Shown: positions 2,819 to 62,912 of the stretch, piece by piece
How the letters are laid out: each line of letters opens with the position of its first letter
How positions within the stretch are numbered: position 1 is the first letter of the stretch
Assembly: GCA_017412055.1 (NCBI GenBank)
Contig: JAFQOW010000015.1
Span: 77,602-141,601, forward strand
From: Lachnospiraceae bacterium
GTDB taxonomy: Bacteria > Bacillota > Clostridia > Lachnospirales > Lachnospiraceae
Reading direction: 5' to 3'
DNA: 64,000 bases
Notes under the pieces: generated by a model
Seen by the model: only the letters and a program-made list of their open reading frames with translations
What the model was told of the DNA's origin: nothing
Databases searched by the model: none
Position numbers and translations under genes: made by a program

Positions 2819-2934
2819 GAAAAATAGAGATGAAATAAAAAAATATAAATTTTTTAAAAAATATAAAACCTATAGATAAGTTCGTGTATCTATATACCAT
2901 AACCGATAAAATTAAATTTAAGGAGGAAATTATT

Positions 2935-3351: not shown

Positions 3352-3378
3352 ATAATAAAAGAAAGAGGAGTTGAGCCT

Positions 3379-4764
3379 ATGAAAAAAGGATTTGCATTTG
3401 TTTTAACTGCAGTAACCATGATGGCGCTGGCAGGATGTGGTGGCAATGTAGAAAGTAAGGATAATAAAACAACAGTGGAAAGTAGTATGGAGATAACATC
3501 AAATGAAGAAGCATCTTTGAACGTAGATGATAATGAAGAAGCTTCATCTGAAGAGAAAACAACTGTAGAAGCAACAAAAGACATTTCTTCAGAAGAAAAT
3601 AAAACTGTTGCAGAGCAGGAGACAACAACTAAGGTAGTTGTGAGTGAAAATACATCCACAACGAAGAAAACCACGGAAACCACGAAAAAGCCGGCTGAAA
3701 CAACTACAAAGAAGCCTGTAGAAACAACAAAGAAACCAATAGAGACAACAACTAAGAAGCCTATACAAAAACCAACAGAGACAACGACTAAGAAACCGGT
3801 GGAAACTGAGGCTCCTATCGTTACAAAGATAGGTAATGTAGATAATACGCAATATAGTAAGGTAGTAAAGGCATTTGAAAGTATTGTAAAAAAGATGCGT
3901 CAGGATGGCATAGTTAAAAAATCGGATGTATGTGTAACTATGGAAGGTACAACTATCAAGGTTGATATAAATTATGCAGATAAGGATTCTGATTTGGTAT
4001 TAATTTATAATGCAAATAGCAAGGTTTATGAATTAGTTGTGGATTATGGATTTCAATGGGCAGATGGATTTGGAACAAAGATTAATGGTAAAGATTCGGC
4101 GCCGTATAATAGAGAATTGATTAAATCTGTATTAAGCGTAATAACAAGTGAAAAGGATGTTGTTTTTGAACGAATAGACTTAGATTGTTATTCAGCGATG
4201 GGACTTTATGCAGATAAGTGGACACAGATAGCTGATTGTTCTATTATGAGTGGACAATTTAAACTGGATGAATATTTTTCATATTTTATCACTATGGAGG
4301 ATGTGGACAGCAGAGATAAGTCATTTACATTACTTGGAAAGAATAGTGCTGGAAAGACTATTGAATGCATATTAGAATATGATTCAAGTGTAGTTAAATA
4401 TGAAGCAATAGAAAATGGCGTACATTTGGAAGGCAATGATACAAATAATATATTTGGAAATGCAGCAGTTAAGACAGGAAGTAGTTCCTATGAGAATTAC
4501 AAAAAAGGATTAATCGATAGCTGGAAGGCAAAGGGAGATTCTAATCCTATGATTGATGAGATGACATCTCATCGTGTAAATGGATATACATATTATTGGT
4601 TTGAATTATTTTATGAAACTGCGGATGCAAAAGGTGATCCAGAAGTGTTATATGTACAGATAGGTGAAAATGAATATCTTGAGTTGTTTGGATTTGAATC
4701 ATGGATTAGATTTGAAGATTTTGTAAATGGAGCTTTGTTTATTAAGGAAGTAAAAGTTAAATAA
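3379..4764 (+). CDS. lipoprotein with T/K-rich linker repeats (TTKKP x about 7) and a C-terminal globular domain
   Basis: Signal peptide plus lipobox MMALAGC. Repeats ETTTKKPVETTKKPIETTTKKPIQKPTETTTKKPVETE at about nt 3660-3815. GAGGAG SD. Confidence 0.7.
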   Translation: MKKGFAFVLTAVTMMALAGCGGNVESKDNKTTVESSMEITSNEEASLNVDDNEEASSEEKTTVEATKDISSEENKTVAEQETTTKVVVSENTSTTKKTTETTKKPAETTTKKPVETTKKPIETTTKKPIQKPTETTTKKPVETEAPIVTKIGNVDNTQYSKVVKAFESIVKKMRQDGIVKKSDVCVTMEGTTIKVDINYADKDSDLVLIYNANSKVYELVVDYGFQWADGFGTKINGKDSAPYNRELIKSVLSVITSEKDVVFERIDLDCYSAMGLYADKWTQIADCSIMSGQFKLDEYFSYFITMEDVDSRDKSFTLLGKNSAGKTIECILEYDSSVVKYEAIENGVHLEGNDTNNIFGNAAVKTGSSSYENYKKGLIDSWKAKGDSNPMIDEMTSHRVNGYTYYWFELFYETADAKGDPEVLYVQIGENEYLELFGFESWIRFEDFVNGALFIKEVKVK

Positions 4765-6864: not shown

Positions 6865-7485
6865 GTGGCTAAGAAAGAAAAGACTAAAGCTGAAGAAGCA
6901 TTAAATCAAGAAGCTACTGTGGAGGATACAGCTACTGAAGCTGTGAGTGATGAGACAGTAGAAGCTACTGAGGAGAGTGCTGAGGATAAGGCAGAGGCAG
7001 AAAATGATGAGGCTGCATCAAATGAAGAACAGCCAGCAGAAAAGGATAAGAAGGATATTCTCATAGAGGAGCTTAATGACAAGTACATGAGAACATTTGC
7101 AGAGTTTGATAACTTCAGAAAGAGAAGTGAAAAGGAAAAGGCTGCAATGTTCGAAGTAGGTGCAAAGAGTATTATTGAGAAAATTCTTCCAATTGTAGAC
7201 AGCTTTGAGCGAGGCCTTGGAACATTAACAGAAGACGAGATTAAAGCTAATCCATTTGCAGACGGAATGGATAAGGTCTACAAACAGATGGTAAAGGCTC
7301 TTGAGGAAGTAGGAGTTACACCGATAGAAGCAGTAGGAAAGGAATTTGATCCAAATCTTCATAATGCAGTAATGCATGGAGATGACGAACAGTATGGTGA
7401 GAACATCATATCAGAAGAATTCCAAAAAGGATATATGTATCGTGACACAGTAGTTAGATATAGCATGGTAAAAGTTATTAATTAA
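6865..7485 (+). CDS. grpE: nucleotide exchange factor GrpE
   Basis: GTG start with AGGAGG SD at 6851-6856. Acidic N-terminus then the conserved GrpE core (FDNFRKRSEKE...ILPIVDSFERGL...GVTPIEAVGKEFDPNLHNAV). Confidence 0.95.
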   Translation: MAKKEKTKAEEALNQEATVEDTATEAVSDETVEATEESAEDKAEAENDEAASNEEQPAEKDKKDILIEELNDKYMRTFAEFDNFRKRSEKEKAAMFEVGAKSIIEKILPIVDSFERGLGTLTEDEIKANPFADGMDKVYKQMVKALEEVGVTPIEAVGKEFDPNLHNAVMHGDDEQYGENIISEEFQKGYMYRDTVVRYSMVKVIN

Positions 7486-7663
7486 GTGTTAAACAATGAG
7501 GAAAGAAATTAAGGCGTATGTGCTTGCACATAAAGAATTAATTTCTCGACGAATGTACAGTTTGAGCAATGTAGAGCGATAGCTCGAAATTGCGAAAGCT
7601 GCGAATGCGAGAGTTTCGAAGAAACGTAGCATTCGGTTAACACAGTTAAAGAGTTAAGAATAA

Positions 7664-21561: not shown

Positions 21562-21747
21562 GGTGTAACTAGAATTCTACGGATTGTTACGTGCTACGCA
21601 CTTTCACAATCCTACACAATATTCGTATATCGTGGAGCTAGCGCCCCACTTTTATACTCATATTGTGGCGTGTCAAGACGTCATATAACCACCTATGTGC
21701 AAGCACATGTGGTTAATGAGTTTTTGACACTGAAATCATCATAATAA

Positions 21748-27899: not shown

Positions 27900-27916
27900 A
27901 CAATGAGTCAAATAGA

Positions 27917-27964
27917 AAAGCTAGGATAAGCTTGTGCTCGCACAAAAGCTTATCCTAGCTTTTC
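27917..27964 (+). terminator. long hairpin terminator
   Basis: AAAGCTAGGATAAGCTTGTGctcgCACAAAAGCTTATCCTAGCTTTTc, a stem of about 20 bp. Confidence 0.65.
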
Positions 27965-27987
27965 TATTTGACGAATGTCCTCCATGA

Positions 27988-28124
27988 GTAACGAAGAGCG
28001 AAGCTCGAAGTTACGAATGGAGTCAACTGCGAAGCAGTTGGATTACACCATATGGTAGTAACGAAGAGCGAAGCTCGAAGTTACAAATGGAGGCAACTGC
28101 AAAGCAGTTGGTTTATACCATATG
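27988..28124 (+). repeat. two tandem 67-bp direct repeats (about 90% identical), each with an internal hairpin CAACTGCgaaGCAGTTG
   Basis: Copy 1 at 27988-28054 and copy 2 at 28058-28124. A related ~55-bp segment lies at 7543-7600. Confidence 0.8.
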
Positions 28125-28281: not shown

Positions 28282-30717
28282 ATGTCAATGGCGTGTAAAA
28301 CATGTGGTGGTACAGTAATTCGTGAAGGTAATTATTATGTATGTGAATATTGCAGTAATAAATGGGAAATTGATAGCGGAAATGATGTACATGCAGTTGA
28401 TCGTGCAAATGCATGGTCTGCTCTTCGTGATGGTGATTTTGAAAAAGCATCTGAACTTTTTGAAAATATTATTATTAAAGAAGAAAATAATTATGAAGCA
28501 TATTGGGGACGTGCGCTTGCATTTGCTGGAATAGTATATGTTACAGATATGAATGAAAATAAAAAGGTTCCTACTTGTAACAATATCACAGAAGAATCGT
28601 TTGCTAATAATAAAGATGTGCAGAAAGCAATTTCGCTTGCGCCTGTAGATATTGCTGAAGGATATAAGCAACAAGTTGGATATATTGAAAAGGTTCGTAT
28701 TGAATGGTTGGAAAAAGCCAGTAAAGAACCTGCATATGATGTATTTATTAGTTTTAAGGATAGTGATCGTGAGAATGGAATTGAACGAACACAAGATAGT
28801 GTAGATGCACAAGATCTTTATAATGCACTTGTTGATGAGGGTTATAAGGTATTCTTTAGTAGAATTAGTCTTCGTGATAAAATTTCCGAGCAGTATGAGC
28901 CTTATATTTATAATGCAATTAAAACTGCCAAAGTTATGATTGTATTTGGTGAAAAACCAGAATATTTTAGTTCTGCGTGGATTAAGAATGAGTGGAATCG
29001 TTATAAGAATAGAATTGAAAAAGGTGAAAAACATAAGAACTCTCTTGTTGTAGTCTATAAGAATATGGATCCGGGAGAGCTTCCTATAGTTCTTAAATCA
29101 CGCCAGTGCTTGAATGCAGGGGATATGACGTTTCTTTCTGATTTGAATCGTCATATTAAACGTGTTGTAGATGAATCGAAAAAGTATGTTCAACTTGAAA
29201 GAATAGAGATTACAGGTGGTCAGATTGCAAAGAAGGCAACTACCCTTAATATAAATTCTTTAGAAACTAGAGAAGTTGGTCAAGGGGCAATTGCAGAAAC
29301 TGATATTACAGAACAAGAGTCAATAAAGTTGAGTTATGTGTATTTATCAACGGGACAATGGAATGAAGCAAATGCACTTCTAGAAGATGTATTATTTAAT
29401 AATCCGACTTGTGCGGAGGCAATATGGTGTAAATTAATGGTAAAACATAAAAATTCTGAGGATTCAGATTTTGTAAAAAAGGTGAATGTATTAAGTAACG
29501 ATGATTTTATAATGATAGAAAAAGTATTAAATTGCGCTTCTAAAGAGTTCGCAGAGAAAATACTTGAGTTATTGTATAAATCTGAGGAGTATGTTACTGA
29601 TGGAGTTTATAAAAAAGTATTAGAAGTAATTTTACCATTTAAAATAAATAAACGTCAAAATAGAATAAAGGAGGCATTCTGTGGAGTTATAAATAATAGC
29701 AAATATGATAGCTTTGATTTATTATTAAATACGTTAGAGTCAGATGATGTTGAACAATACATAAAATATAATTATGACTATGCAATGAAGACCGCATCTG
29801 TAATTGAGAAAAGAGCATGTTTGAATAATATTATAAGGGTTGATGAAGGGAATTTATCGGCATTACGTTTGATTGTTAAAATAGATTTAGAATTTTCTAA
29901 TACTTTAGATGAAATGATAAAAAGTATTGAACATTTACTTAAATATGCTTCAGATACAGATAAGGAAATAGAAGAGTGCATAAATTGGTTAACTAATAAG
30001 ATAAATAGAGTTATACATTGTTTAATTGCTAAAAAAATGTTGTGTTATTATAAAAAAGATATTTCGCAACTTAAGGAACAGCTTATAATCCTAAGTTATA
30101 AGATGATTGAGAAAAAAATGTTTGCTGAAGTAGAATATTTCTTGAATTTAATTCTTTCATTTGATGCTAATAATGCTGAGGTATATTGGGCAATTTGTCT
30201 TATGAAGCTTGAAGCGACAAATGAAGAAAATATTGTAAACAAGAAAAGATTGTTAAAAGATGTAGCTGAATTTAATAGATATTTAGTATTAGTTAGTGAT
30301 GATAGAAAGAAAAAGTGTATATATATATCAAAAGAGCAAATAGAGAAACAAGAAAGAGTAAAACAACAACAATTAAATAAAATAAAAGAAGAAATACAAA
30401 CTAAAAAACAAATAAATATGCAAATGAATATAGAAATGGAAACTATTAAGCATAAAAAGTATGGTAGTAGATTTTTAATGTATCTATATGTTTTTATTAT
30501 TGTAGTAGGGATTGGGTTGAGTTGCTTAGCTTTTTCGGAAACAGAGTGTAAATCTTTTGGTTATCCAGGTTTAGCTATAATAACTATTGGCTCTTGTGGA
30601 ATATGGAGTGAATATAAAAAAACCAAGGAACAAAAAGAAAAGATAAATGAGATTCAAACAAGGATTTTAGAGGTGGAAAGAGAAATTGAGGAATTAAATA
30701 CGAAACTGACTAATTAA
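28282..30717 (+). CDS. zinc-ribbon + TIR-domain protein with a long helical/TPR-like region and a C-terminal transmembrane anchor
   Basis: N-terminus CKTCGG...CEYCSN. TIR-like block YDVFISFKDSD...LVDEGYKVFFSRISLRDK...KTAKVMIVFGEKPEYFSSAWIKNEWNRY at about nt 28735-29092. Repeated EAYWG/EAIWC/EVYWA helical motifs. Hydrophobic FLMYLYVFIIVVGIGLSCLAF near the C-terminus. GGAGG SD. Confidence 0.75.
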   Translation: MSMACKTCGGTVIREGNYYVCEYCSNKWEIDSGNDVHAVDRANAWSALRDGDFEKASELFENIIIKEENNYEAYWGRALAFAGIVYVTDMNENKKVPTCNNITEESFANNKDVQKAISLAPVDIAEGYKQQVGYIEKVRIEWLEKASKEPAYDVFISFKDSDRENGIERTQDSVDAQDLYNALVDEGYKVFFSRISLRDKISEQYEPYIYNAIKTAKVMIVFGEKPEYFSSAWIKNEWNRYKNRIEKGEKHKNSLVVVYKNMDPGELPIVLKSRQCLNAGDMTFLSDLNRHIKRVVDESKKYVQLERIEITGGQIAKKATTLNINSLETREVGQGAIAETDITEQESIKLSYVYLSTGQWNEANALLEDVLFNNPTCAEAIWCKLMVKHKNSEDSDFVKKVNVLSNDDFIMIEKVLNCASKEFAEKILELLYKSEEYVTDGVYKKVLEVILPFKINKRQNRIKEAFCGVINNSKYDSFDLLLNTLESDDVEQYIKYNYDYAMKTASVIEKRACLNNIIRVDEGNLSALRLIVKIDLEFSNTLDEMIKSIEHLLKYASDTDKEIEECINWLTNKINRVIHCLIAKKMLCYYKKDISQLKEQLIILSYKMIEKKMFAEVEYFLNLILSFDANNAEVYWAICLMKLEATNEENIVNKKRLLKDVAEFNRYLVLVSDDRKKKCIYISKEQIEKQERVKQQQLNKIKEEIQTKKQINMQMNIEMETIKHKKYGSRFLMYLYVFIIVVGIGLSCLAFSETECKSFGYPGLAIITIGSCGIWSEYKKTKEQKEKINEIQTRILEVEREIEELNTKLTN

Positions 30718-30731
30718 CTTGTAACGTGGGA

Positions 30732-30762
30732 AAGATGGTTAGCGATAGCCATCTTTTTAGTT
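30732..30762 (+). terminator. rho-independent terminator after the first TIR gene
   Basis: AGATGGttagcgatagCCATCTTTTTAG. Confidence 0.55.
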
Positions 30763-30814
30763 TGAATTGATAAGAAAATAGTTTGATTGTTATAATTGTC
30801 GTAAATTGTTGAAA

Positions 30815-30850
30815 ATACATTGTATATATGTTAGAATACAATTGTATTCT
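30815..30850 (+). promoter_or_regulatory. tandem palindromic operator-like sites (ATACA-N1-2-TGTAT x2) upstream of the RHH gene
   Basis: AATACATTGTAT at 30814-30825. Perfect 18-bp palindrome AGAATACAATTGTATTCT at 30833-30850. Centres about 21 bp apart. Confidence 0.55.
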
Positions 30851-30912
30851 TTGATGCCATGGTAGGCGTATATTATTATGTGAATATTAAGTAATTTGAT
30901 AGGAGTTGTTAT

Positions 30913-31104
30913 ATGGACGAAGAAAAGAAATTAGTCATTTTACCACTAAAATATAGTGGTGAGACAACGGTAATATCTATGCGAATGCCGAAAGATATGT
31001 TGGCAGATATAGATAAAATAGCTGAAAAAACAGGAAGAACGCGTAATGAAATACTGATGTTGAGTATGGAATTTGCTATAGAACACATAACTACGAAAGA
31101 ATAA
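30913..31104 (+). CDS. ribbon-helix-helix (CopG/Arc-type) DNA-binding protein
   Basis: TVISMRMPKDMLADIDKIAEKTGRTRNEILMLSMEFAIEH fits a beta-strand-helix-helix pattern. 63 aa. Confidence 0.65.
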   Translation: MDEEKKLVILPLKYSGETTVISMRMPKDMLADIDKIAEKTGRTRNEILMLSMEFAIEHITTKE

Positions 31105-31118
31105 GGAGGATTTAGGTT

Positions 31119-32882
31119 ATGGCTAAATTTGCGATTGCATGCCCTGTATGTGGAAAATATGCGGAGGCTAAAACAGGTTTTTTTGCGAGAAAGAAAATTG
31201 ATTGTTCATGTGGAAATGTAATTAATGTTAAGCTGGATAAGCTTGCGTCAAGAGAGTGTCCGCATTGTGGTAATCAAGTTGCATATGATCAGAGTCAAGG
31301 TGAACATGCATTGTGTCCAGTGTGTCATCAAGGCATAAATACTATGGCATTGCAGCAGAAGATAGAAGAGTTTTCATGTTCTCAATGTGGAGTAAGATTG
31401 ATAACCTCTAAAAGTGCGGCAACATATACATGTCCAGTATGTGATTGTGTTAATGATATTCAGGAACGTCTTGTGTCTGAAAATATTAAGAAAGATGGTC
31501 TTGCTAGTATTATTAAGTATGAGGGAAATAACGATACGTTTATATGGAAACATCCAATTGAAGATTTTAATTATGGTTCACAGCTTATTGTACATGAGAG
31601 CCAGGAAGCAATATTTTTCAAGGATGGACAGGCATTAGATATATTTGGACCTGGTAGATATACTCTTGAGACGCAGCAATTACCACTTATAGAGAAAGCT
31701 TATAAGTTGCCAACAGATACAGAAGGTACATTTCATTCGGAAGTTTACTTCATTAACAAGACAGTACAAATGGCAGTTAAATGGGGGACAGCTGAGAAAG
31801 TAAGATTCATAGATCCGCTTACAGGTGTTCCATTGGAACTTGGTGTGTCAGGTGAAATGAATATTCAGGTGTGTAATTCAAAGAAATTATTGGTAAAGCT
31901 TGTAGGTACAATGAGTGGATTATCTTGGGATGAAGAAGCAGAAATGACTAAGTCATTGAAATCGTCTTTTAGACCAATGATAGCAAATGCGGTGAAGACT
32001 AATCTACCATCTGTAATTAAAAATGAAGCAATTGATCTTCTTGAAATTGATGAAAAATTAGATATTATTTCAGAATGTCTTAAGGAAAAGGTGCAAGCAG
32101 GATTTGAAGAATATGGTTTGACTGTGCCGCAGTTTTATGTAACTACTGTAGTTCTTCCAGAAGATGATCCTAATTTTAGGAGAATTCGTGAATTACATAC
32201 AATAACACTTCAGACAAGAATGTTACAAGCTGAAGCTACTATAAAGACAGCACAGGCTCAAAGTGAAACTATGTATAGAACTGCTCAGGAGCAGAGCAAG
32301 GCGGCTATTGAAGTAGCACAACGAGAAGCAGAGTTACAGAGGCAGATAACAGAAACAGAAATTGCAAAAAGAGAGGCTGAAAGAAAAATTATTGCTGCAC
32401 AAGCTGAAGCACAAGCACAGAGAATGGCTGGTTTGACTGAAGCTGAAATTATGCAGGCAAAGGGGTATTCTCAAAAGGATGTACTTCAGGCAGATGTGCA
32501 GAAAGCATATGCAGAAGGTATTGGTAATATGGGACCATCTATAAGTGCAGGTGGAGGAAGTAATATAGTTGGAGATATGCTTGGACTTGGGGTTGGAATG
32601 GCAGCAGCAAATGCGGTTGCACCACAGATAGGTAATATGATACAAGGCTTTACTAATCCTATGAATCAGCCACAGATACAGCCACAGATGCAACCACAGA
32701 TGACAGTTGGAGGTTCATGGGATTGTAGTTGTGGACAGAAAGGAATAGTGGGTAATTTCTGTAGTAACTGCGGAGCAAAGAAGCCACAACCTGCGATGCC
32801 TGAAATGTGGAATTGTACATGTGGACAGGTAGGTATAACAGGAAATTTCTGTAGTAATTGTGGTAAGAAGAGAGGTGAATAG
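31119..32882 (+). CDS. SPFH/band-7-like protein (COG4260-like) with three N-terminal and two C-terminal zinc ribbons and a coiled-coil
   Basis: N-terminal CxxC pairs x6. Central block WKHPIEDFNYGSQLIVHESQEAIFFKDGQALDIFGPGRYTL resembles the SPFH fold. E/A/Q-rich coiled coil. C-terminus CSCGQKGIVGNFCSNCG...CTCGQVGITGNFCSNCG. AAGGAGG SD. Confidence 0.55.
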   Translation: MAKFAIACPVCGKYAEAKTGFFARKKIDCSCGNVINVKLDKLASRECPHCGNQVAYDQSQGEHALCPVCHQGINTMALQQKIEEFSCSQCGVRLITSKSAATYTCPVCDCVNDIQERLVSENIKKDGLASIIKYEGNNDTFIWKHPIEDFNYGSQLIVHESQEAIFFKDGQALDIFGPGRYTLETQQLPLIEKAYKLPTDTEGTFHSEVYFINKTVQMAVKWGTAEKVRFIDPLTGVPLELGVSGEMNIQVCNSKKLLVKLVGTMSGLSWDEEAEMTKSLKSSFRPMIANAVKTNLPSVIKNEAIDLLEIDEKLDIISECLKEKVQAGFEEYGLTVPQFYVTTVVLPEDDPNFRRIRELHTITLQTRMLQAEATIKTAQAQSETMYRTAQEQSKAAIEVAQREAELQRQITETEIAKREAERKIIAAQAEAQAQRMAGLTEAEIMQAKGYSQKDVLQADVQKAYAEGIGNMGPSISAGGGSNIVGDMLGLGVGMAAANAVAPQIGNMIQGFTNPMNQPQIQPQMQPQMTVGGSWDCSCGQKGIVGNFCSNCGAKKPQPAMPEMWNCTCGQVGITGNFCSNCGKKRGE

Positions 32883-32885
32883 TCT

Positions 32886-33572
32886 ATGCATAAAAACAAA
32901 GTAAGAGGATGTATAACATTAGCAGTAATAGCAATTGTATTAAGTGTAATAGCGTTTGTTGCACCATTTTTAATGAATGCTACATTTTGGATAGCATATT
33001 TGTTTTCAGTTATAGCTATAGCATTTCAGATATATATATTTAAGATATCTTTTTCAGAAACAGAAGATGTAAAGAGTAAATTTTATGGTTTTCCTATCGC
33101 TCAGATAGGCGTAATATATCTTGTGGCGCAACTTGTAATAAGTATAGTGGAAATGATTCTTGCTACATTGATTCCAAGCTGGGTTGCAGTTGTGATTAAC
33201 ATAATTGTAACAGCGGCAGCGGTTCTTGGTTGCATTGCCGCAGATACTGTGAGAGACGAGATAGTAAAGCAGGATGATAAATTAAAAAAGAATGTCACAA
33301 ATATGAGAAGCATGCAGTTATTGTCGGCATCTATCGCAGGACAATGTACAAGTGAAATAAAATGTGAATTAGAGAAATTAGCAGAAGAGTTCAAGTATAG
33401 TGATATAGTGTCATCAGAGGCAACTGTTGAATTGGAAAATGAGATAAAACAACAATTAGATGAACTTCAAAGTTCAGTAATAGAAGGAGATATTGAATCA
33501 GCGAAGGTTTTGTGCGCTGGAATTCATGCAAAACTTAACGAGCGTAACAGATTGTGCGCACTAAATAAATAG
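32886..33572 (+). CDS. integral membrane protein (about 4 TM) with a C-terminal coiled-coil
   Basis: Hydrophobic helices, then ELEKLAEEFKYS...LQSSVIEGDIESAK. Lies 4 nt after the previous stop. Confidence 0.5.
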   Translation: MHKNKVRGCITLAVIAIVLSVIAFVAPFLMNATFWIAYLFSVIAIAFQIYIFKISFSETEDVKSKFYGFPIAQIGVIYLVAQLVISIVEMILATLIPSWVAVVINIIVTAAAVLGCIAADTVRDEIVKQDDKLKKNVTNMRSMQLLSASIAGQCTSEIKCELEKLAEEFKYSDIVSSEATVELENEIKQQLDELQSSVIEGDIESAKVLCAGIHAKLNERNRLCALNK

Positions 33573-33599
33573 ATATAAGTAGCTTAGGAGGAATATACA

Positions 33600-36014
33600 A
33601 TGGCAGTAATAAAATGTAAAATGTGTGGTGGTCAACTTAAAATTATTGAAAATTCAAGTGTTTGTGAATGTGAATACTGTGGTACAAAACAGACAATACC
33701 AACAGTAAAGGATGAAAATATACAGTCTTTATTTAATCGTGCCAATCATCTTCGTATGAAGGCAGAGTTTGATAAGGCTTCAGAAATATATGAAAAGATA
33801 ATATCAACTAATGATAAAGAAGCAGAAGCATACTGGGGACTTATATTATGTAAATATGGCATAGAATATGTAGAAGATCCAACAACTTACAAGCGTATTC
33901 CAACTTGTCACAGAGCATCTTATGAAGCTGTCGTTGTAGATGAAGATTATAAATTAGCACTTCAATATGCTGATATGTTTCAGAAGGAAATATATGAAAG
34001 AGAAGCAAAAGCAATTGATGATATTCAAAAAGGTATCGTGCAGATAGCGCAGAAGGAAGAACCTTATGATGTGTTCATATGTTATAAAGAGACTGACGAA
34101 GATGGTAAACGTACACAGGATAGCGTAATAGCTAATGATATTTATTATCAGTTAACACAGGAAGGATATAAGGTATTTTATGCGGCTATAACTCTTGAGG
34201 GCAAGTTAGGACAGGAGTATGAACCATACATATTTTCAGCGCTTAATTCTGCAAAAGTTATGTTGACAATAGGAACAAAAACAGAATATTTTAATGCAGT
34301 GTGGGTAAAAAATGAGTGGAGTCGATTCCTTAAAATATTGAAAAATGATCGTTCTCGTATGCTTATTCCTTGTTATAGAGATATGGATGCATATGATTTA
34401 CCAGAAGAATTTGCACATCTTCAGGCTCAAGATATGAGTAAAATAGGATTTATTAATGATCTTGTAAGGGGAATAAAGAAGATAGTAGGTTTGGAGGAAA
34501 AAGCAGTATCTGAATCACCAGTTGTACAACAGACAGTAGTTGCAATGTCTGGTAATGTAGAAGCGTTGTTAAAAAGAGGAAATTTAGCACTTGAGGATAT
34601 GGAATGGGAAAGAGCAGATGGTTTCTTTGAGGAAGTGCTTAATCACGATGCAGAAAATGCATATGCTTATTTAGGAAAAATGTTGGCAGAGTTGAAGTTG
34701 TCAAGTGCTTCTAAAATATCAACAATTTCACATATTTCATTTACTGAAAATAAGGATTTTATTAAGGCGTTAAGATTTGCTGATGATAAATTGAAAGAAG
34801 AACTAAATGGTTATGTAAAAAAAAGAATGGAGGAAGAAGAAAAGAGAGTATTGAATGAAAAAAGGGTTATGGATGAAATAGAATGGCTTTTGAGTGAAAA
34901 AGAGACAAAAAAAGAAATAGATAGTTTAGTTGCGTGTGGTGATGATTATAGTATAGGCCTGAAAAAAGATGGGACAGTAGTGGCGACAGGAGATAATGAT
35001 AGTAGAAAACGTGAAGTAGAGACATGGCGAGATATAGTAGCGGTTGCGTTTGGTTTTCGTCATAGTATAGGCCTAAAAAAAGATGGGACAGTAGTGGCGA
35101 CAGGAGATAATAAGTATGGTCAATGCAAAATAGAGACATGGCGAGATATAGTAGCGGTTGCGTGTGGTGATGATCATAGTATAGGCCTGAAAAAAGATGG
35201 GACAGTAGTAGCGACAGGAGATAATGGAGAAAGTCAATGCGAAGTAGAGATATGGCGAGATATAGTAGCGGTTGCGTGTGGTGGTTATCATAGTATAGGT
35301 TTAAAAAAAGATGGGACAGTAATGGCAACAGGAGAACATGTGTATGGTCAATGCAAAGTAGAGACATGGCGAGATGTAGTAGCGGTTGCGTGTGGTAATG
35401 CTCATAGTATAGGCCTAAAAAAAGATGGGACAGTAGTGGCAACAGGATATAATTATAATAGTGAATGTGAAGTAGAGACATGGCGAGATATAGCAGCGGT
35501 TGCGTGTGGTCGTAAACATAGTATAGGCCTAAAAAAAAGTGGTACAGTAGTGGCGACAGGAGATAATAAGTATGGTCAATGCAAAATAGAGACATGGCGA
35601 GATATAGTAGCGGTTGCGTGTGGTGATGATCATAGTATAGGCTTAAAAAAAGATGGGACAGTAGTGGCTACAGGAAATAATAAGTATGGTCAATGCAAAG
35701 TAGAGACATGGAAATTATTTGATAATGTTTATAGTTACTTAGAAGAAAAGGATATAGAATGTAAAGCAGAAGAGGAAAAACGTAAAGTAGAAGAGGAAAA
35801 ACGTAAAGCAGAAGAGGAAAAACGTAAAGCAGAAGAGGAAAAACGTAAAGCGGAAGAGGAAAAACGTAAAGCAGAAGAGGAAAAACGTAAAGTAGAAGAG
35901 GAAAAACAAAAATTTGAATGGCGACAATTAGGATGTTGTCAGCATTGTGGTGGCATGCTTAAAGGCTTTTTTATAAAAAAATGTGTATCATGTTGTAGAG
36001 AAAAAGATTATTAA
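33600..36014 (+). CDS. zinc-ribbon + TIR-domain protein fused to an 8-repeat RCC1-like beta-propeller, an E/K-rich single-alpha-helix repeat and a C-terminal zinc ribbon
   Basis: N-terminus CKMCGG...CECEYCG plus EAYWGLIL motif (paralog of 28282). TIR block YDVFICYKETDEDGKRTQDSV...GYKVFYAAITLEGK...SAKVMLTIGTKTEYFNAVWVKNEWSRF at about nt 34065-34410. Eight copies of VACGDDHSIGLKKDGTVVATGDNxxGQCKxETWRDIVA. (EEKRKAEE)x7. CCQHCGG...CVSCC. Confidence 0.8.
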   Translation: MAVIKCKMCGGQLKIIENSSVCECEYCGTKQTIPTVKDENIQSLFNRANHLRMKAEFDKASEIYEKIISTNDKEAEAYWGLILCKYGIEYVEDPTTYKRIPTCHRASYEAVVVDEDYKLALQYADMFQKEIYEREAKAIDDIQKGIVQIAQKEEPYDVFICYKETDEDGKRTQDSVIANDIYYQLTQEGYKVFYAAITLEGKLGQEYEPYIFSALNSAKVMLTIGTKTEYFNAVWVKNEWSRFLKILKNDRSRMLIPCYRDMDAYDLPEEFAHLQAQDMSKIGFINDLVRGIKKIVGLEEKAVSESPVVQQTVVAMSGNVEALLKRGNLALEDMEWERADGFFEEVLNHDAENAYAYLGKMLAELKLSSASKISTISHISFTENKDFIKALRFADDKLKEELNGYVKKRMEEEEKRVLNEKRVMDEIEWLLSEKETKKEIDSLVACGDDYSIGLKKDGTVVATGDNDSRKREVETWRDIVAVAFGFRHSIGLKKDGTVVATGDNKYGQCKIETWRDIVAVACGDDHSIGLKKDGTVVATGDNGESQCEVEIWRDIVAVACGGYHSIGLKKDGTVMATGEHVYGQCKVETWRDVVAVACGNAHSIGLKKDGTVVATGYNYNSECEVETWRDIAAVACGRKHSIGLKKSGTVVATGDNKYGQCKIETWRDIVAVACGDDHSIGLKKDGTVVATGNNKYGQCKVETWKLFDNVYSYLEEKDIECKAEEEKRKVEEEKRKAEEEKRKAEEEKRKAEEEKRKAEEEKRKVEEEKQKFEWRQLGCCQHCGGMLKGFFIKKCVSCCREKDY
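34920..35700 (+). repeat. eight tandem ~153-nt repeats, near-identical at nucleotide level, encoding the RCC1-like blades
   Basis: Repeating ggcctgaaaaaagatgggacagtagtggcgacaggagataat...gagacatggcgagatatagtagcggttgcgtgtggt units. Source of the spurious minus-strand ORF 34867-35595. Confidence 0.9.
35760..35925 (+). repeat. seven tandem 24-nt repeats (gaagaggaaaaacgtaaagcagaa) encoding EEKRKAEE
   Basis: Perfect or near-perfect copies. Source of the spurious minus-strand ORF 35739-35927. Confidence 0.9.
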
Positions 36015-36036
36015 ATTTAGGAAGGGATTTTTACAT

Positions 36037-36972
36037 ATGAGTCAAGTAAAAGAACAAAAGTATCTACAAGTGTTATTGTTAGGGAATGGTATTAATCAAT
36101 TAAATGGCGGTAAGTCATGGAATGAATTTTTGCGAGATATAACCACAAAACAAGAGATTTTAGATGGTATTATCCAGTTGGAAAAACTGCAGTGTCCAGA
36201 ACCATTAAAAGCAATTTTGGTAACAGAAGATCATATTGATGTTGCTATGAAAAATTACTGTAAAAAGATTGCTTTTGAGAAGCAAGCACCACAAATATGT
36301 GAAATATATAAAACTATATTAACTATGGGATTTGACGATATCCTTACTACAAATTACACATATGAATTAGAAGTGGCAGCGGCTACACCAAAAGAAATAA
36401 ATGAATCTAAAGTAAGAGCAATGGCGCGTAATACATTAGGACGCAGGGTTGAGAATAAGTATCTTTTGCATACATATAATTGCTTGAAAGTTCTTGAGTG
36501 TGAAAATAGAGTATGGCATATTCATGGAGAAGCGAGAAAACCAGATAGTACAGTTTTAGGACATTATTACTATGGGAATTTACTTTTTAAAATAAAAAAT
36601 TTTTTGGAAAGAAGAAAATATGCATATATTACAGAAAGTGAATCGTGGATTGATTCGTTCATAATGGGTGATGTTTATATTCTTGGATTTGGATTTGCTT
36701 TTTCTGAAATGGATTTATGGTGGCTTTTAAATCGTAAAGCAAGAGAAAAAAGTGATGTGGGCAAGGTGTATTTTTATGAAGCAAAGCCAGATGGTTTTAA
36801 TGAGAAGCAAGAAATATTACGTATGATGAAATGTGCATCAGATGGAGAACCACTGGTGGAAATCATTGATTGTGGATTTGATGAAAAAGAATTGAAAACA
36901 TTTAATGATAAATATGAAGCTTTTTATAAAGCTGCGATTGAAGATATTTATACTAAAATGAATAAAGGATAG
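36037..36972 (+). CDS. SIR2_2-family (sirtuin-like, predicted NAD+-consuming) protein
   Basis: SIR2_2 motif series LLLGNGINQ (GAG-type Rossmann), DDILTTNYT (TTNYD motif), WHIHGEA (HG motif), YILGFGFAFSEMD (GYS..D motif). Start chosen at MSQVKEQ (36037), 23 nt after the TIR-RCC1 stop. The tracked ORF starts at 35983 inside the upstream gene. Confidence 0.75.
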   Translation: MSQVKEQKYLQVLLLGNGINQLNGGKSWNEFLRDITTKQEILDGIIQLEKLQCPEPLKAILVTEDHIDVAMKNYCKKIAFEKQAPQICEIYKTILTMGFDDILTTNYTYELEVAAATPKEINESKVRAMARNTLGRRVENKYLLHTYNCLKVLECENRVWHIHGEARKPDSTVLGHYYYGNLLFKIKNFLERRKYAYITESESWIDSFIMGDVYILGFGFAFSEMDLWWLLNRKAREKSDVGKVYFYEAKPDGFNEKQEILRMMKCASDGEPLVEIIDCGFDEKELKTFNDKYEAFYKAAIEDIYTKMNKG

Positions 36973-37051: not shown

Positions 37052-37300
37052 GTGTTTTAAACATAATTTAAAAACTGAAATTAAAACGTTGACGAGGACA
37101 GTAGATTAGCAAAAAGGAATCAAAGAGAGAAGCAGGTGGTGTGATTGCTTCATTCCCGGCTACATTGAAAACCACCTCTGAGTGACTCTAATAAAGTCCG
37201 GTGATTACGTTATAATCATAAGAGTGGTAGCTTTTTTGCTACAATTTGGGTGGAACCGCGATAATATCGTCCCTTGCAGATTTATATCTGTAGGGGATTT
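37052..37300 (+). ncRNA. T-box riboswitch leader (Thr specifier ACC) with terminator/antiterminator
   Basis: Promoter TTTACA-N16-TAAAAT at 37018-37045. AGAGA stem-I start. Specifier-like GAAAACCAC. T-box consensus AATTTGGGTGGAACCGCG at 37243-37260. Terminator CCCTTGCAGATttatATCTGTAGGGGATTTTT. Confidence 0.8.
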
Positions 37301-44878: not shown

Positions 44879-47134
44879 ATGTTAAAGGAATTTTGTAACA
44901 ACAAGTACGGTAGAGATTTAAGCGCATGCTCTAATGAAGAGATTTATGTAGCACTTCTCGAGATGACAAAGGAACTCTCTAAGAACAGAGTGTCTGAGGA
45001 AGGTAAGAAGAAGATTTACTACATCTCAGCTGAGTTCCTTATCGGTAAGCTTTTATCTAACAACTTAATTAACTTAGGTGTGTTCGCTGAAGTTAAGGCT
45101 GAGTTAGAAGCTGCTGGAAAGAGCATTTATGATATTGAAGAGATCGAGCCAGAACCATCACTTGGTAACGGTGGTCTTGGTAGACTTGCTGCATGTTTCC
45201 TTGATTCTATGGCTAGCATTGGTCTCAACGGTGACGGTATCGGTTTAAATTATCACTTTGGTCTTTTCAAGCAGGTATTCGAGAATAACTTCCAGAAGGA
45301 GACAAAGAATCCTTGGATTGAGAATACAAGCTGGCTTACAAAGACTGATAAGACATACGAAGTTCAGTTCGGTGGATTCTCAGTTAAGTCTGTACTTTAT
45401 GATATAGATGTTACAGGTTATGAGAATAGAACAAATAAGCTTCATTTATTTGATATTGAGTCAATCGATGAGAGCCTTGTTTGGGGTGATGATATTCACT
45501 TCGATAAGACACAGATTGCTAAGAACCTTACATTGTTCTTATATCCAGATGATTCAGATGAAGCTGGTCATATGCTTAGAATTTATCAGCAGTACTTTAT
45601 GGTATCATGTGGTGCTAGATTAATCCTTGATGAAGTTAGAGCTAAGGGCTGCAATCTTCATGATTTACATGAGTATGCTACAATTCAGATTAATGATACA
45701 CATCCTTCAATGGTTATCCCAGAGTTAATTAGACTTCTTACAGCAGAAGGTATCTCACAGGATGAGGCTATTGAAATCGTATCTAAGACTTGTGCATATA
45801 CAAACCACACAATTCTTGCAGAGGCTCTTGAGAAGTGGCCAATCCATTACCTTGAGAGAATCGTACCACAGCTTGTTCCAATCATCAGAGTATTAGATGA
45901 GAGAGTAAAGGCTAAATATAGCGATCCTTCAGTTCATATTATTGATGGACAGGGTAGAGTACACATGGCTCATATGGATATCCACTATGGATATAGCGTA
46001 AATGGTGTTGCTTACCTTCATACAGAAATCTTAAAGAACAGCGAATTAAATAACTTCTACAAGATTTATCCTGAGAAGTTCAATAATAAGACAAACGGTA
46101 TCACATTCAGAAGATGGTTACTTCACTGTAACGAGGACCTTGCAGCTTACATTGAGAAGCTCATCGGACCAGACTTCAAGAAGGATGCTACAAAGCTTGA
46201 AGAATTACTTAAGTTTATCGATGACGAGGAAGTTCTCAATGGAATTCTTGAGACAAAGAAGGCTAGAAAGGTTGTTCTTAAGAACTACTTAAAGGCTACT
46301 CAGAATGTTGACATTGACGAGAACTCAATCTTCGATATCCAGGTTAAGAGACTTCATGAGTATAAGCGTCAGCAGTTAAACGTACTTTATGTAATCCATA
46401 AGTACTTAGAGATTAAGAAGGGCAATAAGCCAGAAACACCTATCACAGTTATCTTCGGTGCTAAGGCTGCTCCAGCTTACCAGATTGCTAAGGATATCAT
46501 TCATGCAATTCTTTGCTTACAGGATATTACAGCTAACGATCCAGAGGTAGCTCCATACCTTAAGGTTGTTATGGTTGAGAACTACAATGTATCTAAGGCT
46601 GCTAAGTTATTCCCAGCTTGTGATATTTCAGAGCAGATTTCACTTGCTTCTAAGGAAGCTTCAGGTACAGGTAACATGAAGTTCATGCTTAATGGTGCTG
46701 TTACACTTGGTACAATGGACGGTGCTAACGTAGAAATCGCTGAGCTCGTTGGTAAGGATAATATCTATACATTCGGTGAGAGCAGTGAACAGGTAATCGA
46801 GCATTACGCTAAGGGTGACTATGTTGCTAAGGATTACTATATCAATGATGCTGATATCAGAGAGTACATCAACTTCCTTATCAGCCCAGAGATGATGAAG
46901 GTTGGTAATGCTTATGTATTATTAAGACTTCATGCAGAGCTTATTCAGAAAGACTGGTTCATGACATTGCTTGATGTTAAGGATTACATCAGAGTTAAGG
47001 AGACAGCTCTTAAGGATTACGCTGATAGAAAGACATGGGCTAAGAAGATGCTTACAAACATCGCTAAGGCAGGATTCTTCTCATCAGATAGAACAATTGA
47101 AGAGTACAACAGAGATATCTGGCACTTATCATAA
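44879..47134 (+). CDS. glgP: glycogen / maltodextrin phosphorylase (GT35)
   Basis: [39 protein letters not shown]-site region [23 protein letters not shown] before the ATG at 44879. The tracked ORF starts at 44771. Confidence 0.9.
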
Positions 47135-47160
47135 TAAGAAATAAAATATTTCACATATTA

Positions 47161-47187
47161 CCCTCGGTCATAAGACCGAGGGTTTTT
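47161..47187 (+). terminator. rho-independent terminator of glgP
   Basis: CCCTCGGTCataaGACCGAGGGTTTTT. Confidence 0.85.
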
Positions 47188-47860
47188 GCATCTATCTCCC
47201 CTGCCATCACATTCCATTATATAATTCATATTATCGGAATTTTATAAATTATATGAAACGATTTTCTGCCATATACGTATATGACTGCGTACGAAGTATC
47301 CATCTATTTTTTACCGCCTCTCGAGGGTTCCGATGATTTGCTTATATGCCCCTCTTGATACTAAGGCTGTGTGTATTTTCGTTAAAAACACAACATAGCT
47401 AGTGGTGTTCACAGGACGCGGACAACGATTCGATTTTCTATTTTCAGTATCCCACACCAAAGAATGCTTATTATCCACCTGCCGCCATAACTCATCAGCT
47501 TGGCCGATTAACTCTCGCGCAGCGAGAGTAGCCAAGCTTCTTCAAACAGTATTCTGGCAGGTGGGCATTATCTTTGATGTGGGATGCTGAAAATTTAACG
47601 AAAATCTCCATATGTTGTCCGCCGTCCTGCGAACATCCACTTAGCTAAGGTTGTGTTTTATCGAAAATATCACACAGTAATAAACTTGTATCAAGAGGGC
47701 ATTTAGCAAATCACGGGTTCATCGAAACAGCGGTAAAAAGTAGATGGATATTCGTAGCAGTATTTTACTGTGTATAAGCAGAAAATCGTTATTTAATACA
47801 CATAATATTCCGATAATATGAATTATGAAAAGACAGATGGTGGCAGGGGGGATAGATGCA
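47188..47860. repeat. ~670-bp imperfect palindrome: inverted arms of ~335 bp each at ~75-80% identity, centred near 47524, relatively GC-rich
   Basis: Three segment pairs were checked by eye. rc(47730-47860) aligns to 47188-47318. rc(47545-47729) aligns to 47319-47490. The central ATAACTCATCAGCTTGGCCGATTAACTCTCGCGCagCGAGAGTAGCCAAGCTTCTTC is partly self-complementary. Confidence 0.8.
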
Positions 47861-47939
47861 AAAAAAGGTTGATATTTTGCCTGAGAAATATTAAAATACA
47901 ATAGTATTAATGTATATTCTGAACATTTGGAGGAAGCTA

Positions 47940-49469
47940 ATGTATAAAATATTAGTTTGTGATGACGAGAAGATAGAAAGAAAAGGAGTTATATTCCTTT
48001 TTAAACAGATGGATATAGACTGTGAAATAGAAGAAATTGTCAATGGCCAGGCTGCTCTAGAGTATTTGGAAACACATGAGGTAGATATATTGCTTACTGA
48101 TGTGAAGATGCCACATATGGATGGAATGGAGCTTATTAAGAAGATTAAGGAAAGAAACCTTAATCCAAATATGAAGATAATTATCGTAAGTGGATACAGT
48201 GATTTTGAGTACGCTAAGCTTGCAGTTAAGCTTGGTGTATCCGATTATATACTTAAGCCTGTAGACCCTAAGGAATTTGAACCTACATTGAGAAAGCTTC
48301 TTGATGAATTAGATAGTCAGAAGTATGAAAAGGATTTAAAAGAGAAGAGTATGTCCTTTATGAAACAGCATTATTTGTATTCTCTCGTAAATGGCTTGAA
48401 TGCAAAAGAGGTTGAAGACCTTGGCTTGTCTAAGGGCGAATTAAATGTTGATTATCATAGACTTATGCTTTTGGAGTTTGAACAGAGCTTTTTTGGTAAG
48501 TCAGATGATGGATTTATGCAGAATTTGCATGAATGTATAGAGGATGCAGAGTTTCAGTATCTTAATTTGAATACGGATCAGTGTGTTATTTTCTTTGACA
48601 AGATGGAAACTGATGAAAGATATTGGAAGGAAATGGCTTCTAAGATTCAGAAGATGATTTTGAATAAATATAAAATGACAGTTTATATTGCTATCTCTAA
48701 GGAATTTGAAGATGTGAGAGATGTAACTGCAGCATTTGAGGAAACAGAAAATCTTATGGAAAATAGATTTTATGTAACTGAGTCTAAAATATATATTTCC
48801 TATGCTGATGATAAAGTAGCCATAGATGAACATGCGGATGATGATACTCTTATGAAGCAGATGAAGCAGGATATTAAGATGAAGGATACAGAAAATCTTA
48901 AGGTTCATTTTGCAAAGCTTTGTGCTAAGTATAAGAAGAAAAATGATTTTTCTCAGGTATATATTAAATTTATATTCTCCAACTTACTTAAGGATTTTTA
49001 TGATAATTTACCAGATGTTGGAGCACGTGATTTGAATAGTGAGATTGAAAGACTTTATAAGTCAGCAGATTTTCAGACAGTTATAGATATTGTTAATGTG
49101 AACATAAAGAGACTTGAGGAAACCTTCCAGTCAAATCCACAGATGATTCACAGAGAAATAGAAAGTGTTAAACAATATATCTATGAGCATTATGGTGAGG
49201 AAATCAGTGTTGAATATCTTGCAGATTTGGTTTATATGGCACCTAGCTACTTAAGCTGCGTGTTTAAGAAGGAAACAGGACAGAATCTTAGTAAGTTTAT
49301 TAAGGCTTATCGAATGGAGAAAGCTAAGGAAATGCTTGAAGAAAGCCATAAGAAAATTGTAACTATTAGTAACGAAGTTGGATATCCAAATGTATCTTAT
49401 TTCTGTCAGAGTTTTAGAGAGTATTTTGGAATAAGTCCTCAGAAATTTAGAAGTCAGGGGGAGAAGTAG
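47940..49469 (+). CDS. two-component response regulator (CheY-like receiver + AraC-type HTH; YesN-like)
   Basis: Receiver MYKILVCDDE...DILLTDVKMPHMDG. C-terminal HTH_AraC. GGAGG SD before 47940. Confidence 0.85.
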   Translation: MYKILVCDDEKIERKGVIFLFKQMDIDCEIEEIVNGQAALEYLETHEVDILLTDVKMPHMDGMELIKKIKERNLNPNMKIIIVSGYSDFEYAKLAVKLGVSDYILKPVDPKEFEPTLRKLLDELDSQKYEKDLKEKSMSFMKQHYLYSLVNGLNAKEVEDLGLSKGELNVDYHRLMLLEFEQSFFGKSDDGFMQNLHECIEDAEFQYLNLNTDQCVIFFDKMETDERYWKEMASKIQKMILNKYKMTVYIAISKEFEDVRDVTAAFEETENLMENRFYVTESKIYISYADDKVAIDEHADDDTLMKQMKQDIKMKDTENLKVHFAKLCAKYKKKNDFSQVYIKFIFSNLLKDFYDNLPDVGARDLNSEIERLYKSADFQTVIDIVNVNIKRLEETFQSNPQMIHREIESVKQYIYEHYGEEISVEYLADLVYMAPSYLSCVFKKETGQNLSKFIKAYRMEKAKEMLEESHKKIVTISNEVGYPNVSYFCQSFREYFGISPQKFRSQGEK

Positions 49470-62499: not shown

Positions 62500-62507
62500 T
62501 GTAGGTT

Positions 62508-62535
62508 TAAACCCTCGCCCTGTCGGCGAGGGTTT
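62508..62535 (+). terminator. rho-independent terminator after the pullulanase gene
   Basis: AAACCCTCGCCctgtcGGCGAGGGTTTT. Confidence 0.85.
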
Positions 62536-62900
62536 TATATGTGTTGGATAAGAATTTCAGAATCAAACGCTTTGTTAATTATATTTAGTCATTTTATAAG
62601 CTCTATGCTGTCTTTTCACATGCTACAAATATATGATTTTCTAAATACTTTGATTTAGGTTAATAATATAGAACGTGACCGGCGCCTATTCGCCATCCAT
62701 GGCTCAGAGACGCCTTATTCCAACATCGTGTTGGAATATCACTAGTTGAGAGCAAAGTATTAAGAAAATCTATATATTCTTCGCTATCGTGAAAGTGACA
62801 GCATAAAGTTATAAAATAACTAATTAAAACTTTTTATAAAGCGTTTGATTCTGAAATTCTTAATGGAATATATAAAACCCTGCCGACAGAGCTAGGGTTT
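62508..62900. repeat. ~390-bp imperfect palindrome with a terminator-like hairpin at each end
   Basis: AAGAATTTCAGAATCAAACGCTTT (62551-62574) is perfectly inverted at 62840-62863. The inner arms are inverted at ~75% identity. A second hairpin AAAACCCTgccgacagagcTAGGGTTTT at 62873-62900 is roughly the reverse complement of the 62508 terminator. Confidence 0.8.
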
Positions 62901-62912
62901 TAAGAAGTGAGT

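Follow-up and report, generated by a model that had tools for sequence, protein, structure and literature searches.

A dispersed, quasi-palindromic foldback cassette with an invertible interior upstream of a two-component operon in Lachnospiraceae

What kind of element occupies the gap between glgP and a two-component signalling operon in a Lachnospiraceae genome? The locus lies in a 64,000-nucleotide stretch of contig JAFQOW010000015.1 (assembly GCA_017412055.1); this whole 64-kb stretch is called the window here, and coordinates are window positions. A preliminary description of this DNA had pointed out an imperfect palindrome between the two genes and had listed an ancient inverted duplication, a long hairpin or structured non-coding RNA, convergent small-RNA genes and a recombination site as possible explanations. 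Comparison with related contigs firmly identifies it as a cassette that is real, discrete, dispersed, non-coding and quasi-palindromic, with an interior that undergoes inversion at a 20-bp repeat. The dispersed, insertion-polymorphic and flipping nature of the block is absent from that description.

The palindrome spans 47183-47866. Its left arm aligns with the reverse complement of the right arm (47864-47571) at 77.8% identity over 302 columns (BLASTN, E=1.5e-47), within the 75-80% estimated earlier, and an alignment of the whole intergenic region with its own minus strand reaches 73.9% over 727 columns. A BLASTN search of the 64-kb window with the left arm yields no copy besides the right arm. 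The axis of symmetry, previously placed near 47524, falls at 47523.5, the midpoint of two perfect 20-bp repeats at 47221-47240 and 47807-47826. Symmetry does not extend over the entire intergenic region, as had been stated: the glgP terminator (47160-47187) and the promoter and leader of the response-regulator gene (47860-47939) fall outside it. The G+C content had also been set too high, at about 50%; the element has 39.4%, its inner 410 bp have 43.1% and no 200-nt stretch has more than 45.5%, compared with a window average of 35.1% and 19-39% in other intergenic regions. The absence of a credible open reading frame (ORF) stands: in the five orthologous copies compared, the longest ORFs vary in position and sequence, and none is conserved. 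The arms pair end to end as terminal inverted repeats without coding capacity, as in MITEs (miniature inverted-repeat transposable elements) and foldback elements.

The edges of the cassette were set by contigs with a gene for the same response regulator or for a related one (numbered with the prefix L). Lineages in which the response-regulator gene is 82-90% identical at the DNA level carry a palindrome of 683-707 bp at the same place (five lineages, flanking T and A runs included). In L030, whose glgP 3' end is 94.6% identical to the window, homology ends at 47187 and restarts at 47860, in agreement with the 47188-47860 given at first; the gap holds 78 nt that are unrelated to the cassette, resemble the spacer of the more distant relative L014 and look ancestral. 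L013 has a terminator-promoter spacer of 143 nt only, and L014-L017 have 350 nt without homology. The T-run of the glgP terminator forms the left insertion boundary, and the same hairpin is present at all orthologous loci, including the empty site L030. Because L030 and L013 are without the cassette and the flanking T-run and A-run already exist there, 47188-47859 is an insertion or replacement between these two runs.

Copies are found in at least four contexts and, with L030 and L013 as empty sites, the element shows both the dispersal and the presence/absence polymorphism expected of MITEs. L005, a contig from a Lachnospiraceae metagenome-assembled genome, carries one copy between purL and a GGDEF gene, with a deletion of ~215 nt in one arm, and a second, partial copy adjoining DegV. 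L006 carries a copy upstream of an ABC ATPase gene, and in L007 a truncated copy lies beside a fusion of Flavodoxin_2 and an IS110 transposase. These three contigs are the matches from pattern scans of genomes and metagenomes with block D (Table 1) and CTTGATAC; the patterns included variable positions, so the size of the family is underestimated. Plasmid and phage collections (blastn, distant mode) and five pattern scans of viral contigs gave no match and no parent element. The family host appears to be uncultured rumen Lachnospiraceae, the rumen metagenome origin being read from sample names. The window itself belongs to an uncultured Lachnospiraceae bacterium, with a GroEL identical to NCBI protein MBQ2981449.1.

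The orientation of the arms relative to the flanking genes was compared over 17 loci. Nine contigs encode one identical response regulator (P0010), seven of them with the arm order B..A and two with A..B. The inversion is exemplified by L021 and L026: their flanks are collinear (99.2% identical on the left, 97.3% on the right), their interiors are 99.6% identical as reverse complements (565/567 columns) compared with 74.3% when aligned collinearly, and their outer stubs of ~40 bp are 97% identical collinearly compared with 69% when swapped. The switch point lies within the perfect 20-bp repeat ATAATTTACATTACCAGAAC, the window equivalent of which is ATAATTCATATTATCGGAAT. The 566-bp interior thus exists naturally in either orientation, the crossover being located in the 20-bp repeat, and of the explanations first offered, that of a recombination site is borne out by this inversion between near-identical strains. 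The window, with the order A..B, matches its nearest relative L018 at 79.2% as the reverse complement and at 65.5% collinearly and therefore has the opposite orientation; it is also inverted relative to L011 and collinear with L012. Mapped on response-regulator gene identity, without a tree, these orientations suggest at least three independent flips among seven lineages. No orientation variants of the window's own strain were seen.

In each of the five lineages the equivalent of this repeat, 20-25 bp long, exceeds every other perfect run shared by the two arms. The repeat sits 38 bp in from each end and is the only outer-arm part recognisably conserved between unrelated loci. An assembly artefact was considered as the source of the two orientations and rejected: misassembly is unlikely because each orientation was assembled in several samples, both include contigs from two assemblers (judged by contig names) and the arms are only ~75% alike. 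The L029 contig begins exactly at the first base of the 20-bp repeat, which hints at the assembly-graph branch expected if both orientations coexisted in the sample.

Table 1 Features of the cassette and its flanks (window positions; a dot marks features without a strand)
Feature	Position	Strand	Remarks
glgP intrinsic terminator	47160..47187	+	10-bp stem, 4-nt loop, T-run; from terminator scan; flank, outside cassette
Whole quasi-palindromic cassette, 672 bp	47188..47859	.	Arm A, central hairpin, arm B; edges from L030
Outer left stub, arm A	47188..47220	.	Beyond recombination site, non-inverting; based on L021 vs L026 stubs
IR-L (inverted repeat, left), 'block B', ATAATTCATATTATCGGAAT	47221..47240	.	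Left copy of perfect 20-bp inverted repeat; crossover site
Invertible segment, 566 bp	47241..47806	.	Order here A then B; arm B toward response-regulator gene
IR-R (inverted repeat, right), ATTCCGATAATATGAATTAT	47807..47826	.	Right copy of 20-bp inverted repeat
Outer right stub, arm B	47827..47859	.	Non-inverting
Central hairpin	47498..47537	.	GCTTGGCC / GATTA bulge / ACTCTCGC-GCA-GCGAGAGT / A / GCCAAGC
Arm-A-specific block, GAGGGTTCCGATGATTTGCTTATATGC	47323..47349	.	25/27 positions invariant in six lineages (alignment A3); neighbouring sequence co-varies
Arm-B-specific block, AGAGGGCATTTAGCAAATCACGGGTTC	47694..47720	.	25/27 positions invariant in six lineages (alignment A3)
B-specific 5-nt insertion	47683-47687		AACTT on this strand; just upstream of arm-B block
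'Block D', left copy, TATCCATCTATTTTTTACCGC	47297..47317	.	Right copy 47730-47750; repeat 95% complementary
Promoter-like site of response-regulator operon	47869..47897	+	TTGATA-17-TAAAAT; flank, outside cassette
YesN-like response regulator (Response_reg + AraC HTH)	47940..49469	+	Pfam annotation of identical contig

The reading that we favour, with fair though not high confidence, is that of an inverton-like foldback cassette upstream of a two-component operon, dispersed and non-coding, the interior of which inverts at the 20-bp repeat. Its two arms of ~335 bp, of the anciently diverged types A and B, surround a short GC-rich hairpin, the whole having entered between the glgP terminator T-run and the A-run that precedes the promoter of the YesN/YesM-like operon. 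Because the 20-bp repeat is conserved between unrelated loci and perfect in every lineage, we infer that a site-specific recombinase encoded elsewhere would flip the interior. Each flip would change which of the two asymmetric arms faces the signalling operon, and the cassette would then act as an inverton-type, programmed and recombinase-driven switch affecting that operon.

Such an arrangement has close parallels. Invertible sites of Clostridia mostly adjoin signalling genes, and often the recombinase gene is not beside the site but elsewhere (PMC5903667); the cmr switch of C. difficile (Cdi6) lies upstream of cmrRST, an operon of two response regulators and a kinase (PMC6837544). Like the clostridial invertons cmr, flgB and cwpV (PMC6837544, PMC5903667, PMC2784873), the cassette is intergenic, has short inverted repeats, occurs in both orientations, lies directly upstream of a signalling operon (response regulator and kinase here, a GGDEF gene in L005), has no recombinase beside it and would exert an expression effect that is not an obvious promoter flip. 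Unlike them, its interior is a 566-bp quasi-palindrome with co-evolving arms, and it is dispersed, insertion-polymorphic, without an upstream promoter (it follows a terminator) and known here from contig comparison only. The invertible promoters of Bacteroidales and other gut bacteria found in PhaseFinder-type surveys (PMC11892184, PMC11602134) offer, by their description, a likeness in forming multi-locus inverton families with a common inverted-repeat motif that are flipped in trans, but they have a recognisable internal promoter motif and are not palindromic inside, whereas the cassette has no conserved promoter. If the flip is programmed, the cassettes would constitute an inverton family placed before signalling operons (a two-component system and a GGDEF gene) in uncultured rumen Lachnospiraceae.

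Several observations weigh against a programmed switch. A comparison of the window, L011, L012, L019 and L021 reveals no conserved promoter- or terminator-like site within the cassette. The response-regulator operon has its own promoter beyond the cassette edge and retains it in empty sites as well. No recombinase was found in the 64-kb window (Pfam of the larger ORFs; annotations from glgP to the transporter on an identical contig) or among the genes adjoining the copies in L005, L006 and L010. Both orientations are seen between strains or samples only, never within one clone, and for the window's own strain the contig breaks fall at 47381, 47499 and 47733 rather than at the repeat. A perfect 20-bp repeat could also support rare inversion independent of a recombinase, and since the interior is nearly palindromic, a flip alters little sequence, which is odd for a switch.

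Candidates for a regulatory output were examined and set aside. The best of them, the arm-B promoter TTGATA-17-GATATT, which has a 5-nt shorter spacer in arm A, was rejected as the output of the switch: its hexamer co-varies in both arms, and the candidate is lost in L012, L019 and L021. A hybrid promoter across the 20-bp repeat is good in L005 (TTCATA-17-TATAAT) and acceptable in the window and, read by eye, is not conserved. Nothing convincing was seen by eye in the conserved blocks for DnaA boxes, catabolite-responsive elements (cre), sigma-54 sites or motifs of the extracytoplasmic function (ECF) type.

The main rival is a selfish or neutral, MITE-like foldback repeat that has no regulatory role, has spread into terminator-promoter gaps by an unspecified mechanism and flips incidentally, via RecA or replication template switching at the longest identical stretch, with template switching also homogenising the arms. 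We consider this possible but on the whole unlikely. It would account for an element that is dispersed, non-coding and present or absent between relatives, that, in the window and in L005, is located in 'safe' gaps directly behind intrinsic terminators, that has neither a nearby recombinase gene nor a conserved regulatory signal, that crosses over in its longest perfect run, as homology-driven exchange predicts, and whose copies join larger rearrangements (L010 vs L011; L007). The termini, however, are unlike between the two subfamilies (GCATC... vs CTTCAATT...), a difference that separates the glgP-locus copies from those in L005 and L006, with internal blocks conserved, and no direct repeat that could be a target-site duplication surrounds the copy in the window or that in L005. 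Element length stays within 683-707 bp, and internal blocks of 24-27 nt are conserved among lineages whose flanking genes share only 82-90% identity. Between unrelated loci, conservation extends to the 20-bp repeat but not to the sequence beside it. At least three flips are suggested among seven lineages, for a repeat of only 20 bp, which seems short for efficient homologous exchange. Foldback repeats of the enterobacterial repetitive intergenic consensus (ERIC) and Correia types and MITEs are 100-200 bp long with conserved termini and usually with target-site duplications. The cassette is like them in being non-coding, palindromic, dispersed among intergenic regions, present or absent between strains and a substrate for rearrangement, and differs in its length of 672 bp, its subfamily-specific ends, the lack of a duplication and its internal inversion site.

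A mutational route to symmetric arms that the selfish-repeat explanation can draw on is established. In E. coli, template switching within quasi-palindromes uses one arm of an imperfect inverted repeat as the template for rewriting the other (PMC7202029, PMC6357072). This is the kind of change needed for arms to co-vary without wobble pairs, but it is described as a mutational hotspot in hairpins of tens of bases and not as the maintenance of a 670-bp element. Under the inverton-like reading, too, arm symmetry would be maintained by arm-to-arm copying, through template switching or gene conversion within the quasi-palindrome, with large loops and selected motifs escaping it.

Aligned from outer end to centre, the arms fall into two types that hold in every genome. 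Type A, on the left here, has GAGGGYTCCGATGATTTGCTTATATGC and also CTTGATAC with TAAGG directly after it; type B, on the right here, has GAACCCGTGATTTGCTAAATGC, an extra AAGTT, an extra CGTTAA and a different stretch beside the centre. Because these types are conserved in every copy found, the inverted duplication is older than the divergence of all these lineages, and the proposal of an ancient inverted duplication gains support. Within one genome the arms are 61-70% similar, compared with 51-64% for A and B of different genomes. In an alignment of six copies, all oriented A-first (alignment A3), RNAalifold predicts 193 pairs, of which 72 have changed on both sides and only 8 vary on one side only. 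Covariation across orthologous copies, which the preliminary description had proposed to look for, is therefore strong: 95.0% of cells are paired compared with 84.9% in shuffles, and the covariation score is 0.320 compared with 0.126 in shuffles (0/500 reach 0.320) and 0.05-0.06 when partners are slid by 1-3 columns. Stretches of 15-20 nt are exchanged on both arms together, for example CAGTATCCCACACCAAAGA in the window vs CACCAGTCTGCCCTATAAT in L012, and this paired replacement of segments looks like arm-to-arm copying rather than stepwise compensation.

Other parts stay fixed amid the co-varying arms. These are indels of 5-6 nt, the A-specific and B-specific blocks (47323-47349 and 47694-47720), and motifs conserved in both arms (TGATTTGCT, GATTTTC, GGACA, CCTGYC and GCTYGGC). 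The invariant blocks include GAGGGCTCCGATGATTTGCTTATATGC, GGGCATTTAGCAAATCACGGGTTC and the 20-bp repeat. Because indels, arm-specific blocks and shared motifs are conserved against a moving background, this pattern argues for purifying selection on parts of the cassette. As far as the inverton literature could be searched, it reports no such architecture, in which the arms of a long quasi-palindrome co-evolve and asymmetries stay fixed. It is conceivable, though we would not expect it, that the cassette represents an undescribed class of element, a self-symmetrising invertible foldback cassette in which the quasi-palindrome with its fixed bulges is the functional unit; it might then serve as a structured-DNA substrate for a dedicated recombinase or, alternatively, as a phase-variable insulator or switch between terminators and signalling-operon promoters in Lachnospiraceae.

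Strong covariation would ordinarily point to RNA, and a long hairpin RNA or two convergent small-RNA genes, with the covariation reflecting selection on RNA pairing, would explain the predicted folding energy of the element (-355 kcal/mol, z = -35), the compensatory changes in 72/193 pairs, the conserved bulges and the weak promoter-like hexamers that point inward at both ends. The details of the pairing make this highly improbable. Wobble pairs are not tolerated: in the union of pairs predicted on both strands, G:T occupies 49 cells and A:C 47, and the 177 pairs common to both strands comprise 969 Watson-Crick cells, 12 G:T, 10 A:C and 40 other mismatches, so that wobble pairs are no more frequent than mismatches of other kinds. 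Changes on both sides (72) far exceed variation on one side (8), and arm-to-arm mismatches are mostly transversions. The two strands fold equally well (consensus energies of -208.96 vs -207.91 kcal/mol), and the orientation of the element relative to the flanking genes flips between strains. Single arms fold no better than shuffles (z = -0.1 to +1.3), and two self-folding RNA genes were rejected on this ground. Searches of Rfam 15, with the window at the gathering threshold and 47000-48000 at E <= 10, returned only terminator-like noise at this locus (E > 1). Given the lack of G:U tolerance and strand bias, the equal energies of the strands and the unfolded single arms, symmetry is kept at the level of DNA and not in RNA. 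The structured non-coding RNA proposed earlier is thus disfavoured, and the convergent small-RNA genes, for which there is no conserved promoter or terminator and no Rfam match, fare no better. We note that covariation screens that ignore wobble pairs and strand symmetry would call a giant structured RNA here, a caution for RNA discovery.

DNA-level symmetry also recalls the attC sites of integrons, which are 57-141 bp long, act as folded single strands, are recombined by the integron integrase and form cassette arrays; they are imperfect palindromes, and that their sequence diverges while their symmetry and a few unpaired, asymmetric bases stay is their defining behaviour. A structured-DNA recombination site, with symmetry selected for a DNA hairpin or cruciform and with bulges that mark strand or orientation for a recombinase, would agree with the strict Watson-Crick complementarity, the fixed asymmetric bulges and loops, the drifting sequence with kept symmetry and the status of the element as a proven recombination substrate, but we give it very little credence, as the cassette exceeds any attC site in length by a factor of five to ten, shows neither single-strand action nor an integrase gene or cassette array, crosses over in a duplex-type 20-bp repeat near its ends rather than at the base of a folded structure, and replaces segments on both arms in a way that looks more like copying.

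Copies of the cassette also appear to mediate larger rearrangements. L010 and L011 encode an identical response regulator (P0008) and differ upstream, where L011 has glgP and L010 has GGDEF...DegV; the inference follows from the position of the L010 junction, which falls at block D within the cassette's left arm and joins a DegV-side copy to a response-regulator-side copy. Block D is the second-best conserved inverted repeat and ends the short form of the element beside DegV: L010 and L005:1-83 begin at its equivalent, and the contigs L003, L004 and L018 end there. The start of the DegV-side copy at block D is probably the reason that these several contigs break at this point. Palindromes are a very frequent end point of metagenome contigs. 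In the window's own strain (L002, L003, L004 and L009), contigs end at 47381, 47499 (the centre), 47733 (block D) and 62715 (in a second palindrome), and those of L018, L029 and L033 likewise end inside palindromes, L029 alone at the 20-bp repeat. Multi-copy sequence and inversion probably explain such breaks, though not every break point is accounted for. Cassettes of this kind thus break metagenome assemblies as well as seeding larger rearrangements.

Two copies have peculiarities of their own. In L007, the product of ORF 2462-3385 has an azoreductase-like Flavodoxin_2 N-terminus fused to an IS110-family transposase C-terminal domain, and the cassette arm at 3535-3898, truncated at CTTGATAC, lies ~150 nt past this fusion ORF; this seems to be a rearranged region where an IS110 element hit the palindrome. 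Arm A of L012 contains an extra insert of ~33 nt, CTACAAATTGCAGTTGCTTTGCAACTACAATTAA, at approximately 3370-3402 (locus coordinates), itself a small hairpin and absent from all other copies.

At the centre of the cassette, the outer stem of the hairpin (GCTYGGC..GCCRAGC) is kept in all copies and the apical part has two forms. Beyond its right edge, the response-regulator promoter has 10/12 matches in the window, L011, L019 and L021 and 9/12 (TTGCTA) in L012, and inspection by eye also picks out its hexamers in L030 and L013, where the site is empty. The operon that directly follows the cassette has the order response regulator, His_kinase gene, sugar ABC transporter.

A second palindrome in the window had been taken as a sign of a recurring phenomenon. 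It exists, as a quasi-palindrome at 62506-62903 (72.5% over 418 columns) with a 30-bp, 93% inverted repeat (62549-62578 / 62833-62862) and mirror-image terminator-like hairpins at its ends. The remark on recurrence is only half right: the sequence of this palindrome is unrelated, and its centre (62620-62786) is occupied, on the minus strand, by a full-length match to TwoAYGGAY RNA (RF01731, 129.8 bits). This RNA resembles the cassette in its setting, the exact midpoint of a ~400-bp quasi-palindrome that separates a terminator from the next gene, and differs from it in belonging to a curated Rfam family and in showing no orientation variants in four contigs. The arrangement raises the question of whether TwoAYGGAY loci are also DNA-level or invertible elements.

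Other features of the window lie apart from the cassette. Three Clostridiales-1 RNAs (RF01699) were detected, at 7485-7644 (+; 84.8 bits) between grpE and dnaK, at 21571-21738 (-; 127.9 bits) just upstream of groEL on the opposite strand, and at 27904-28047 (+; 61 bits) before a TIR-domain gene. The region 28282-36972 is a probable defence island with two TIR-domain proteins (one with RCC1 repeats), an SPFH/Band-7 protein and a weak AbiH-like match, and a T-box leader at 37080-37277 (109.3 bits) is situated upstream of an ORF for a GNAT acetyltransferase and of the threonyl-tRNA synthetase gene. ORF 791-2818 encodes sigma-70 regions 2 and 4 together with BspA-type leucine-rich repeats, an unusual combination of domains.

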